Counted from the first letter of the stretch, positions 28,005 through 31,417 are shown. The stretch: DNA of 64,000 nucleotides from Oligoflexia bacterium (GCA_903935335.1 CAIZRG010000051.1:130433-194432), one strand, 5' to 3'. Program-made: numbers and translations. The notes: a model not told the origin generated them from the letters alone.

Positions 28005-28250
28005 TTAGAATGCGATGTGGCCCCTTTTTACCAGGATCTTTTCCATAGAGGAAACCTTCTCCCACTCAGCCTCCCCACCCTGCCCAGAAGCGAAGGTATT
28101 GTTACCCCCTGCCTGAGGAGCCATGGCTGGAGTAGTGGTTGAAGAGCTACTGGCTTCTCCTGCTTGGCCTGGTAAAAACTCAGTTCCATTTCCTAGCTCC
28201 CAGCCCCTCTTGAGGCAGAGTAGATTGAGACGTTCATCAAATTTTTTTAT
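28005..28250 (-). pseudogene. degenerate orphan pre-toxin stub (third copy of the conserved cassette junction) with a very short C-terminus and no start codon
   Basis: Open frame with no ATG that encodes ...LGNGTEFLPGQAGEASSSSTTTPAMAPQAGGNNTFASGQGGEAEWEKVSSMEKILVKRGHIAF*. It contains the conserved 76-bp core at 28107..28182. Confidence 0.5.
28107..28182. repeat. copy A of a 76-bp perfectly conserved core (cccctgcctgaggagccatggctggagtagtggttgaagagctactggcttctcctgcttggcctggtaaaaactc); the wider repeat spans ~28065..28193
   Basis: Identical string found at three loci, each coding (minus strand) for the conserved pre-toxin peptide. Confidence 0.8.
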
Positions 28251-28482
28251 CTTCCAAAAGATTTTTGGCCAAATCCTTTAGACCTTGCTCATTTAATTCA
28301 AACTCCGGTCCTTCATCCATTGCTATTAAAGTGAGTAAAGCATCACGACCGGCTTCTGTGAAAGTATCGTCAGATTTCATGTGAACCTGATGTGCCCAAC
28401 TTGCAACTGCCTTTGGTGTATATTTTTTATCCACCATTATGAGAATATCCTTCGCTAACGCTTGATCACCGTAATTTTTCAT
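28237..28482 (-). CDS. putative immunity protein for the orphan CT2 toxin domain
   Basis: 81-aa acidic protein. Its ATG overlaps the stop codon of the upstream toxin-domain ORF (ATGA). This is the standard toxin-immunity arrangement. Confidence 0.55.
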   Translation of the reverse strand: MKNYGDQALAKDILIMVDKKYTPKAVASWAHQVHMKSDDTFTEAGRDALLTLIAMDEGPEFELNEQGLKDLAKNLLEDKKI

Positions 28483-28983
28483 TTACCTAACTCCTTCGCT
28501 GTAGGTGGGTAGTGATTGCTTTCAACAGTTTCGCCATTGATAGTCTTTGGATGAACACGATTTACGGAACCATCTTTGCCATAACTTTCCATCCAGGACC
28601 TGCTTTGTCCAGTGACAGGGTTGTGTTCAGTGACATATGATGTACCTTGTGTTGGGCCTCCGGTTCTTGCAGGAACTTCTTTGAAGTAATACCTCACACG
28701 CCCATCAGGAAACACTTCCGTATGTTCAGCAGTACCCCCCTAGGCTTTTTGTAGGCCTCGTAGCTTTATCTGATAGGGCTTCTTGCGCATTAGCACTACT
28801 CGCTGGTTTAGCAGCAGCACCCTCTCCCCCCTCAGCCTCCCCATCCTGCCCAGAAGCCAAGGTATTATTAGCCCCTGCCTGAGGAGCCATGGCTGGAGTA
28901 GTGGTTGAAGAGCTACTGGCTTCTCCTGCTTGGCCTGGTAAAAACTCAGTTCCTGGCAATTTTGGACCATAAGAAAATTGAGC
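28479..28983 (-). pseudogene. orphan pre-toxin / C-terminal toxin (CT2) cassette with no N-terminus, split by a frameshift at a G6 homopolymer
   Basis: Two ORFs (28726..28959 and 28479..28715) sit in adjacent frames. Deleting one G from the GGGGGG run at 28735..28740 would fuse ...KSLGG to TAEHTEVFPDGRVRYYF.... The upstream part carries the conserved GTEFLPGQAGEASSSSTTTPAMAPQAG module. There is no ATG, signal peptide or Hint domain. Confidence 0.6.
28872..28947. repeat. copy B of the 76-bp core; the wider repeat spans ~28831..28952
   Basis: Same core string as copy A. Flanks extend the similarity with copy A (ctcagcctcccca.cctgcccagaag). Confidence 0.8.
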
Positions 28984-29047
28984 TTACCGTTGACCCTTAC
29001 AGGAATTTCAAGCTTCAGGATGTCGAAAAAGGGAGCCCGTATGATAA

Positions 29048-29320
29048 TTAAAGTCTATCTAGCCGACTTTTTGAAACCCTGACAATTTTATCCCAACTAT
29101 CGGTTGTGAGGGTTTCTAAAATCTCTCTAGTAACTTTTGGATTATTTGCAACCCTTAGCCTTACCGACTCATCAGAATCCTTTGCAAGTATTGCTAGAAT
29201 ATCGTTGGGGCATTTTCTTTTGTTCGCGACACCCCAACGAACAGATGGATCCAAATCAGTGGAGAGTAAGCGCAAAATTTCTTCTGGCACAGTTTTATTA
29301 TGAATTATCCAAGTTTTCAT
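29048..29320 (-). CDS. small HEAT-repeat (PBS-lyase type) protein
   Basis: 90 aa containing repeated DPSVRWGVANK / DESVRLRVANNP motifs typical of E-Z type HEAT repeats. Lies between the two immunity/toxin cassettes. Confidence 0.5.
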   Translation of the reverse strand: MKTWIIHNKTVPEEILRLLSTDLDPSVRWGVANKRKCPNDILAILAKDSDESVRLRVANNPKVTREILETLTTDSWDKIVRVSKSRLDRL

Positions 29321-29382
29321 GTCAGGGAACTTTTCTATTATTTCATATGGAGCGAGTTTCGCCTTACGATGTTTGAATCGAA

Positions 29383-29787
29383 TTACTCAGGGTCAGCCAC
29401 ATATAAATCAACATCAAATGACGCACGCAATACGTTTGCTAGACCTACGAGTTCTCTAGAAAAATGCACACTGGGCGCATTCTGATTCTCAATTTTTGCA
29501 ACCACTGAAAATACTGCCAACAGATTAAATTCCTTTATTATTGCACAAAATTGAGCTTCTTTAATCTTTAACTGTTGATAAATAGTCGAAGAAATTTCCT
29601 CTAAATCTAGACTATTAATATACCCAGTATCCAAGCACCAATAGTCAAAATCGAGCTTCTTTTTTCCGTACTTACTTTGATCGCCCTTCCTGTGGAAACT
29701 TGTTGGATCTAAACCAGCCCGAGTTGTGACAGTTTTTGGGTCGAAGTCACCTTTCAATTCAAATTTAAATCTTATAGTTGTTCCCAT
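29383..29787 (-). CDS. putative immunity protein, DUF4279-like
   Basis: MGTTIRFKFELKGDFDPKTVTTRAGLDPTSFHRKGD...WCLDTG...LDLEE...FDVDLYV resembles the DUF4279 pattern as I recall it. It lies immediately downstream of the toxin gene. The start is placed at M19 (29787) to avoid a 50-bp overlap; the track ORF extends to 29841. Confidence 0.55.
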   Translation of the reverse strand: MGTTIRFKFELKGDFDPKTVTTRAGLDPTSFHRKGDQSKYGKKKLDFDYWCLDTGYINSLDLEEISSTIYQQLKIKEAQFCAIIKEFNLLAVFSVVAKIENQNAPSVHFSRELVGLANVLRASFDVDLYVADPE

Positions 29788-29791
29788 ACTT

Positions 29792-31417
29792 TTACCTGTC
29801 CTTAAATCGTTCACCAGTTGGAATCCCCTCACCTTTGCCACCTTTTTTTAAAATTTCCAATTCCCCTGTGTCCTTATTTTTATAGATATCGTACTCGGAA
29901 ATCTTCGCTTTCTTACCCAAGAAATCCTTCTTTAGCTCATGTGCATCGATTCCTAGCTTTTCAAGTTGCTTGTCTGATATCTTTTCAATATTTCCTTTGA
30001 CATTTTGCCCTGCAGAATCGTCTTCTTTCCCTGAAGCGAAGGTATTGTTATCCCCTGCCTGAGGAGCCATGGCTGGAGTAGTGGTTGAAGAGCTACTGGC
30101 TTCTCCTGCTTGGCCTGGTAAAAACTCGGTTCCATTTCCCGTTCCAAGACTTTCTTGAGGAAGAGTGGTAGGAGGAGGATTGAAGTGGTCATAAATTTGC
30201 TCACCTAAATAAACACCCACCAATCCTGCTGCTAGAGCTGCTCCAGCTGGGGTCATTAACGCCGCTGCTTCTCCTGCTGCTACCGCCATTGCTTCGGCAT
30301 GTACAACTCGTACTGCTCCTGCTGCTAAGGCCATTGCTTCAGCTTGTGGGGCTTGGAAGCCAGCCAATTCTGGAATCACTGGAACTGGGATACCCAGTGA
30401 TTTGCAATTATGCACTAAAACATCATAGGCATAGTAATTGTGATTGCCTCGGACATCGAGATTATAAACTGTAAAATCCCCTTCGTCGATCTCGTTCTCA
30501 TCTAAGGTAATCGTTTCACCTGAGATGGTGAGGAACTGGTCTCCTGGAATCAAATCCTGGGCTGCTATCCATTTCCTTTGATTTACAACATAAAAGGGAT
30601 GTCTATCGGTTGCTCGGATGACCTTCTCACCTAGGGTCAATTTCCTGAGGTGATCCACTTGATTTTTAATCAATGCCTGAACTTCACCCACTTCACAGGC
30701 TCCGGTACCCTCGCTATCCAAAGACAAGTTACAGCTTAACACTTGATCACCCACTCGAACTGAAGAAATCGGCTGAGAGTGATAGCCCTGAGCTGAGGCA
30801 TCCTTCAAGCTCACGAGAGTATCGCCTGGGAAACAAATCTCTTCTAAGCCACGAAGACTTTTTTTAATCCGTTTATCACCTTCAGTTTCTATTCGTCTAA
30901 TTTCTTCAGCGAAATCTGCATCCTGCTTTTCTCGATATTCTTTTTCATAAGCCGCCCTTTCAGCCTCGATTTCTCTCATTCCTTGAGATTCGAACATGTC
31001 AAACTCAAACTGCATTTGTCTTTCGAGCTCATTATAAATCCTGAGATTTTCTTCAGCCTTTCGTTGCTTTTCAGCTTTGAGTATCGCTTCATTTCTACGA
31101 GCACGAGCTGCGTCATCGGCAGCATTGCGTCTAGCTAATTCTTCAGGACTAGGTCCAGGATAAACACGAGTCCCTGCCCACCAAGGGTTACTAATGGTCA
31201 TTGTATCTGTCGATGAAGAAGAGGAGGAACTGGGTATATTACTGGTTGGATTGCTGGGTGGATCGCTAAAAAACCTACCCGTTTGGCCCATGTGCTTCCA
31301 AAGATAATCTAAACCCGGCTCATCCCCTGAAGCGAATGAAGATTGCTGCAAGAGCATAAACGATAAAACACTCATCAAAAAAGCTTTTAAAACTGATGCG
31401 CTATACTTCGAAAACAT
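29792..31417 (-). CDS. secreted polymorphic toxin: signal peptide, coiled coil, Hint/bacterial-intein-like domain (CFPGDT ... VLVHNC), Ala-rich linker, conserved pre-toxin module, unclassified ~80-aa C-terminal toxin domain (CT1)
   Basis: Signal peptide MFSKYSASVLKAFLMSVLSFMLLQQSSFASG after an AAGGAAA RBS (track ORF starts 14 codons earlier, at 31459). The Hint domain shows hallmarks: N-terminal CFPGDTLV, then VYNLDV..NHNYYA..VLVHNC. These are followed by ...GTEFLPGQAGEASSSSTTTPAMAPQAGDNNTFASG and then a K-rich C-terminus. Confidence 0.8.
   Translation of the reverse strand: MFSKYSASVLKAFLMSVLSFMLLQQSSFASGDEPGLDYLWKHMGQTGRFFSDPPSNPTSNIPSSSSSSSTDTMTISNPWWAGTRVYPGPSPEELARRNAADDAARARRNEAILKAEKQRKAEENLRIYNELERQMQFEFDMFESQGMREIEAERAAYEKEYREKQDADFAEEIRRIETEGDKRIKKSLRGLEEICFPGDTLVSLKDASAQGYHSQPISSVRVGDQVLSCNLSLDSEGTGACEVGEVQALIKNQVDHLRKLTLGEKVIRATDRHPFYVVNQRKWIAAQDLIPGDQFLTISGETITLDENEIDEGDFTVYNLDVRGNHNYYAYDVLVHNCKSLGIPVPVIPELAGFQAPQAEAMALAAGAVRVVHAEAMAVAAGEAAALMTPAGAALAAGLVGVYLGEQIYDHFNPPPTTLPQESLGTGNGTEFLPGQAGEASSSSTTTPAMAPQAGDNNTFASGKEDDSAGQNVKGNIEKISDKQLEKLGIDAHELKKDFLGKKAKISEYDIYKNKDTGELEILKKGGKGEGIPTGERFKDR
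30052..30127. repeat. copy C of the 76-bp core, inside the full-length toxin gene; the wider repeat spans ~30028..30140
   Basis: Same core string, here within CDS 29792..31417. Confidence 0.8.

Follow-up and report, generated by a model that had tools for sequence, protein, structure and literature searches.

The 64,000-nt stretch of DNA analysed here, the window (Oligoflexia bacterium, GCA_903935335.1 CAIZRG010000051.1:130433-194432; all positions are counted from its first letter), very probably contains a polymorphic toxin locus with orphan remnants. A full-length toxin gene of the PT-HINT class, gene B, is followed by two 5'-truncated fragments, orphan 2 and orphan 3, and the same 76-nt core repeat lies within gene B and at the head of each orphan. 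The core marks the junction at which toxin tips join the gene of a presumably secreted toxin, and toxins of this kind are already well known to have such an arrangement. The array is best understood as preserving earlier tip replacements, and it is now largely fossil. The full explanation, in which recombination is also the cause of the identity of the core copies, is likely, if less secure than the assignment of the locus.

An exact search of the window found three copies of the 76-nt string with no mismatches, at 28106-28181 (copy 1), 28872-28947 (copy 2) and 30052-30127 (copy 3, within gene B between the hydrophobic linker and the Ntox33 domain). This bears out an earlier note on the same DNA, which had described three identical copies and placed the first one base off, at 28107-28182. 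All three copies have the same plus-strand orientation and are therefore direct repeats, with the minus strand as coding sense. None would be expected by chance (100 dinucleotide-preserving shuffles), and no fourth copy was present in the window when up to three mismatches were allowed. The minus-strand translation of every copy is GTEFLPGQAGEASSSSTTTPAMAPQAG, the pre-toxin peptide that the earlier note had given. Copies 1 and 2 have 82 exact nt in common (28106-28187 and 28872-28953), and each shares exactly 76 with copy 3. Beyond the exact string, a blastn self-comparison extended the similarity, with mismatches, to 105 nt at 95% for orphan 2 and the main gene, 135 nt at 95% with one gap for orphan 3 and orphan 2, and 139 nt at 92% with one gap for orphan 3 and the main gene. 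The flanking similarity that had been put at ~110-125 bp is thus present, but its measured span is 105-139 nt. The repeat unit, on the minus strand throughout, covers 30029-30166 in the main gene (self-matches to the orphans at 92-95%), 28819-28953 in orphan 2, where homology to the main gene starts only 6 nt upstream of the core, and 28054-28221 in orphan 3, where that homology covers ~40-60 nt upstream of the core and a 1-nt indel shifts the frame. Past the core, similarity persists for 25-50 nt (xNNT[F/L]ASG...).

The main gene has the domain content of a PT-HINT polymorphic toxin. Gene B (29792-31459, minus strand) encodes 555 aa with, in order, a putative signal peptide, a coiled coil, a PT-HINT domain, an Ala/Gly-rich linker, the core and an Ntox33 domain. 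Its likely real start is at 31444 (550 aa) or 31417 (541 aa), and the deposited calls (P0003, 550 aa; P0001, 541 aa) likewise begin at later ATGs, not at the TTG of the 555-aa product. The N-terminus, MFSKYSASVLKAFLMSVLSFMLLQQSSFA|SG, looks by eye like a Sec signal peptide. Pfam places PT-HINT (PF07591) at residues 223-345 (3.9e-13, 50.3 bits against a cut-off of 27.7), and NCBIfam adds the intein C-terminal splicing region TIGR01443 (23.6 bits against 15.6); the HINT motifs CFPGDT and VLVHNC are conserved among gene B, the adjacent gene A and the homolog P0002. Ntox33 (PF15533) covers residues 490-550 of 555 (Pfam, 1.8e-11, 44.8 bits against 28.4), and the [DN]xHxxK motif of PMC3482391 is found there as DAHELK. 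No RHS or FHA domain was found in gene B with Pfam or NCBIfam, which sets it apart from Rhs and CdiA toxins; the metagenome locus L010 and the protein P0037, unlike gene B, have an Rhs core end. The N-terminal body has only one relative among 5.8 billion protein clusters, at 39% identity.

Directly downstream of the predicted toxin, in toxin-then-immunity (TI) order, lies the gene for a DUF4279 protein, Imm1 (29383-29841, minus strand; Pfam, 5.2e-19), which overlaps the 3' end of gene B and is presumed to be the immunity partner of Ntox33. The same pair, Ntox33 with DUF4279, recurs behind an unrelated Rhs toxin in L010, a locus that also has a classical Rhs orphan. This recurrence suggests that the pair behaves as a portable, mobile toxin-immunity module. 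Two side observations concern the gene itself. The Ala-rich linker contains a 35-nt imperfect tandem duplication (30268-30347, minus strand; 86%), and one metagenome contig, L014, starts beside it at 30320. Another, L013, is a 3.2-kb contig from sample ERZ27313254 of which 2835 nt are 100% identical to the window; its remaining nt 1-412 join at 30614, in the middle of the HINT domain, and encode YVTN beta-propeller repeats fused in frame at ATDRHPFYV. This could be a chimeric assembly or a variant N-terminal body, and the fusion would delete the N-terminal half of HINT.

Downstream of gene B, core copy 2 heads orphan 2, which consists of a linker and a C-terminal toxin domain, CT2, that is disrupted (28479-28871, minus strand; delimited by tblastn of the intact homolog P0012 and by a family alignment). 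Compared with P0012, which is 82% identical, CT2 has two lesions: a +1 frameshift by insertion near 28764-28767, with frame -2 read to 28765 and frame -3 from 28766, and an in-frame TAG at 28740-28742. A run of six G residues lies at 28735-28740. It had been considered as the sole cause of the break, an idea dropped once the P0012 alignment revealed the insertion and the TAG; the run is left as a possible one-step bypass. CT2 was assigned to no family in sequence searches of Pfam, NCBIfam or PDB. It has 43 homolog clusters with the motif LPDGRxRYY...RVHPK...HYPPT, some of them behind Rhs cores or named filamentous hemagglutinin, and it represents a conserved C-terminal toxin domain family that lacks annotation.

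The presumed immunity gene of orphan 2, Imm2 (28237-28482, minus strand; 81 aa), is intact, overlaps the end of CT2 by 4 nt and encodes a protein (P0008) that is present on 9 contigs. A locus from another organism, L015 (Logan ERR10482437), has a homologous 78-aa gene that overlaps an intact CT2 in the same manner, which indicates that the pairing of CT2 with Imm2 is conserved. Imm2 is probably kept for protection against CT2-armed competitors. L015 is itself a related array with an intact CT2 and immunity pair; it has its own junction repeat, only 82% identical, and another repeat of 50 nt (GGAATCTG.GGGACGGAGCTCAGACATG) that precedes successive cassettes. The L015 coordinates of these repeats are 856-905 / 1671-1720 and 12-66 / 892-946. 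Between Imm1 and orphan 2, a gene at 29048-29320 (minus strand) encodes a 90-aa LRV/HEAT-like repeat protein (Pfam LRV, 2.6e-05), possibly a solitary immunity gene left from an earlier cassette, to judge only from its position.

Orphan 3 is shorter still. After core copy 1, its tail (28004-28105, minus strand) is a remnant of 33 codons, GNNTFASGQGGEAEWEKVSSMEKILVKRGHIAF, followed by a stop in three-frame translation. No toxin domain and no immunity gene were found after this copy, and the tail had no homologs among 1.84 billion representative proteins. Two claims of the earlier note have to be narrowed here. It had held that everything 3' of the core differs between copies, which is right in that the tips of gene B and orphan 2 are unrelated domains, but the 25-50 nt of similarity past the core and the absence of any recognisable toxin or immunity gene after copy 1 do not agree with it. 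It had also treated both orphans as cassettes of a C-terminal toxin domain with an immunity gene, and orphan 3 has neither. Both orphans are 5'-truncated fragments that carry the shared pre-toxin junction in direct orientation, and they are truncated at different 5' points. Neither has an intact toxin with its cognate immunity gene, the toxin being broken and the immunity gene intact in orphan 2, and they are best called degenerate orphans. The decay grows with distance from the main gene.

Evidence on the cause of the identity comes from the ~19 synonymous sites of the core, none of which differs among the three copies. Immediately outside the core, the first amino-acid-conserving codons already have synonymous changes (ACT/ACC, AAC/AAT, TCT/TCA), and the next 45 nt are 69-89% identical. 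A core that is perfect even at its synonymous sites, beside diverged flanks, is best explained by homologous recombination or gene conversion. Either crossovers in the course of tip replacement, for which perfect identity is needed, or gene conversion at a later time could be responsible. Since the copies differ in 5' truncation point and in the downstream linker, the mosaic is in keeping with Campbell-type or displacement events at the core. Recombination in the past is what fits the identity best; the suggestion that it is recent or ongoing had been drawn from the identity alone. It is very improbable that the copies are identical through purifying selection on a peptide that functions in processing or translocation, or on an RNA or DNA signal. 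While the peptide does lie within the fragment predicted to be released and is kept in all copies, selection on the peptide would not freeze ~19 synonymous sites, and the orphan copies are outside protein selection because they have no start, signal peptide or HINT domain. The peptide, a low-complexity linker, is missing from the closest homologs, P0002 and L002, and the core has neither excess RNA structure (z = +1.1) nor a match in Rfam. An assembly artefact, or a very recent tandem duplication in which the core has no role, is more improbable still. The sources are metagenome assemblies, and one of the contigs, L014, breaks off precisely at the boundary of core copy 1, which shows that assemblers struggle at the repeat. 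However, L011, L013 and L014, from three samples, each have all three copies in unique, mutually different flanks; the repeats are therefore not an assembly artefact. A simple recent duplication would leave identical flanks, and the flanks differ.

Whether the array is a working switch was addressed by simulating crossovers core by core; direct repeats permit deletion and not inversion. Recombination of the main gene with orphan 2 deletes 1180 bp and gives a 517-aa product that ends in KSLGGYC, and recombination with orphan 3 deletes 1946 bp and gives a 502-aa product. Neither product has a toxin domain, and both events also delete Ntox33, Imm1 and the LRV gene. The earlier note had proposed that the repeats are a recombination substrate for tip switching between the expressed gene and the orphan cassettes. 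On this view, the orphans would be silent spare tips, and a RecA-dependent crossover at the core would join CT2 or the tip of orphan 3 to the expressed gene to produce subpopulations with a new toxin. The anatomy behind this proposal stands: the core does lie in the pre-toxin linker of a gene with PT-HINT and Ntox33, its copies head 5'-truncated orphans, the direct repeats are in frame at the right place, and Imm2 is intact. There is also a precedent in Salmonella Rhs (PMC3967940). Moreover, loss of one G from the run at 28735-28740 after a crossover with orphan 2 (1181 bp deleted in all) would give a full 599-aa fusion with an intact CT2 catalytic region. Against this, the frameshift and the stop in CT2 are found in every assembly whose DNA was read, orphan 3 brings no toxin or immunity gene, plain crossovers yield toxin-less products at the cost of Imm1, and no recombinant contig or protein was found in public data. 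An operational switching reservoir is thus unlikely, and the part of the earlier claim that made the array usable at present is not supported. A site-specific inversion or shufflon-type switch would have inverted repeats on either side of the variable segments and a recombinase close by; all three copies have the same orientation, and no recombinase was found among the neighbouring genes called or scanned. Less likely again is an integrase-free cassette system with a two-step lock, in which RecA crossover would excise or insert circular units of core, toxin and immunity gene, slippage in the G run would re-open CT2 once it is fused, and CT2 would be a widespread toxin domain with an undescribed fold and mechanism. 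Under such a system, a silent tip would be armed only by two rare events, and the cell would keep Imm2 protection without the cost of the toxin.

The same arrangement was found in at least five metagenome assemblies from different samples (ERZ27229619, ERZ1426572, ERZ1426519, ERZ27313254 and ERZ18637247), and the DNA of the locus is 100% identical among them wherever it can be compared. Between window positions 32535 and 20000, L011, a 431-kb contig, matches at 100%, the CT2 lesions included. Among 5.8 billion protein clusters, none was found in which the gene B body carries a different tip, and no strain polymorphism was seen, in that all public gene B bodies carry Ntox33; since only one near-clonal lineage is sampled, this is absence of evidence and does not count against membership of the polymorphic toxins. 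Comparable perfect junction repeats are absent from the related loci L002-L004.

Several points weigh against the explanation by tip replacement and recombination. The statistics for homogenisation come from three short copies, and the homology tract, 76 exact nt within ~105-139 nt in total, is far shorter than the 522 bp of Salmonella Rhs. No contig that fuses the main gene with an orphan was found in the at least five assemblies, consensus assemblies being blind to rare variants, and none of the data show a recombination event directly. A degenerate DNA pattern for the core, GTEFLPGQAGEA, had no matches in GTDB representative genomes or JGI metagenomes, and a search with the core-region protein among the 5.8 billion clusters returned only the open reading frame of the locus's own orphan. 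The core peptide is therefore private to the locus, and no donor pool that shares this handle is visible. Finally, the secretion and the toxicity of the gene B product are predictions.

The history that we propose is nonetheless one of tip replacement at the core of a PT-HINT polymorphic toxin in an uncultured diderm bacterium. Gene B would be exported by way of its signal peptide, and the HINT domain, with its N-terminal Cys and C-terminal HN|C, would most likely cut itself. This would free a C-terminal fragment in which the hydrophobic Ala/Gly-rich segment is followed by the core-encoded low-complexity linker and then by Ntox33; the overlapping DUF4279 gene would protect the producer. The core would serve as the homology tract by which tips are joined to the constant gene body, and each tip replacement would displace the previous tip downstream together with a junction copy of its own, as in a sequential-displacement model. 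Within the tract, crossovers or gene conversion would keep the core free of differences, and the sequences on either side would come from different sources. Repeated displacement of this kind could have led to the present state, with an intact immunity gene and a twice-damaged toxin in the nearest orphan and only a junction and 33 codons in the farthest.

Parallels exist with orphan cdiA-CT/cdiI modules of contact-dependent growth inhibition (CDI) and with Neisseria MafB/TpsA, where promoterless arrays of toxin tips and immunity genes, each with a conserved pre-toxin stretch, lie downstream of an expressed toxin gene. The present locus likewise has tip fragments that carry the pre-toxin region downstream of an expressed toxin gene. 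The scaffolds differ from that of gene B: the CDI and MafB proteins have either the FHA repeats of a type V secretion system, with a VENN motif, or the DUF1020 domain of MafB. The locus is a classical polymorphic toxin locus with orphan cassettes, as in CdiA, Rhs and MafB, but of the less-studied PT-HINT class.

Polymorphic toxin systems were described by Zhang, de Souza, Anantharaman, Iyer & Aravind 2012 (PMC3482391) as a 5' body that stays constant, joined to a 3' toxin-immunity cassette that recombines, with strings of remnants and TI gene order, and both Ntox33 and HINT processing are listed there. Like those systems, the present locus has a 5' body with an autoproteolytic-type HINT domain and, to judge by eye, a trafficking signal, a variable C-terminal toxin, toxin-then-immunity order, and standalone toxin cassettes with extra immunity genes downstream. 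It differs in that the body is a putative signal peptide and coiled coil with no RHS or FHA repeats, in that the junction is a private low-complexity linker and not a conserved family motif, and in that no strain polymorphism was seen. In Salmonella Typhimurium, recombination between main and orphan Rhs genes (STM0291/STM0292), which fuses the orphan tip to the main gene, was shown experimentally by Koskiniemi et al. 2014 (PMC3967940). There too, a full-length gene is followed by a 5'-truncated C-terminal toxin region with its immunity gene, and the two share a direct repeat immediately before the variable tip. In Salmonella this homology spans 522 bp at 95%, compared with 76 exact nt (105-139 nt at 92-95%) here, and the present locus has no YD repeats, no PxxxxDPxGL motif and only defective orphans. 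Delivery also differs, with a type VI secretion system (T6SS) in Salmonella and only an apparent Sec signal seen here. Sequential displacement is reported for T6SS effector/immunity arrays of Vibrio cholerae (Kirchberger et al. 2017, PMC5361080). Those arrays reportedly resemble the present one in that the newest module stands beside the constant gene and older ones are displaced downstream, decay and leave immunity genes; they consist mostly of immunity genes, whereas junction repeats are retained here.

The locus adds a clean example of a main gene with orphan cassettes to the PT-HINT class, for which comparative genomics has until now been almost the only source of characterisation. The lineage that it comes from is uncultured, and its closest toxin relatives occur in metagenome-assembled genomes of Bdellovibrionota/Oligoflexia. 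The junction is very short, private to the locus and perfectly identical, and it shows that loci of this kind may get by with very little homology. The gradient of decay along the array favours sequential displacement over a ready reserve. The practical value lies in correct annotation, with a single toxin-immunity pair that is live, an orphan immunity gene and two tips that have become pseudogenes, and in a pointer to the unannotated CT2 family; no new question is opened.

Upstream of gene B, gene A (31490-32860, minus strand) encodes a signal peptide, RCC1 repeats (Pfam, 3.6e-28), a coiled coil and PT-HINT (2e-18). In an alignment with gene B, it stops 12 codons past the HNC motif, and it lacks both a toxin domain and a copy of the core. 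The length of its product varies in the RCC1 region (window 32390-32860 against L011:7982-9955), being 456 aa here, 657 aa in L011 and at least 509 aa in another contig, which could be real copy-number variation of the ~150-nt repeats or collapse of repeats in assembly. The array is bounded on its 3' side by a PIN-domain (VapC-like) gene (27482-27897, plus strand) that is split into two open reading frames, both halves matching Pfam PIN_3, and a gene for a phage-type lysozyme (33078-33476, minus strand) is broken into two in the same way. Together with the broken CT2, these split genes show decay of the accessory region that lies between tatC and rpsF.

A scan for promoters and terminators did no better than on shuffled sequence, and the window contains no tRNA genes. 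Two independent short-read contigs, ERZ1426519 and L013, both end at 27780 within the PIN fragment, and ERZ1426519 starts at ~33020. No repeat within the window explains the breaks at ~27780 and ~33020, which may mark strain-variable boundaries or repeats elsewhere in the genome. Farther downstream of the array, at 25900-27129 (plus strand), a 409-aa protein combines a YdcK/bactofilin-like beta-solenoid of 18-nt (hexapeptide) repeats with a C3HC4 RING finger at its C-terminus. Both RING and RCC1 are domains of a eukaryote-like type, and their presence hints at a host-associated or predatory lifestyle.

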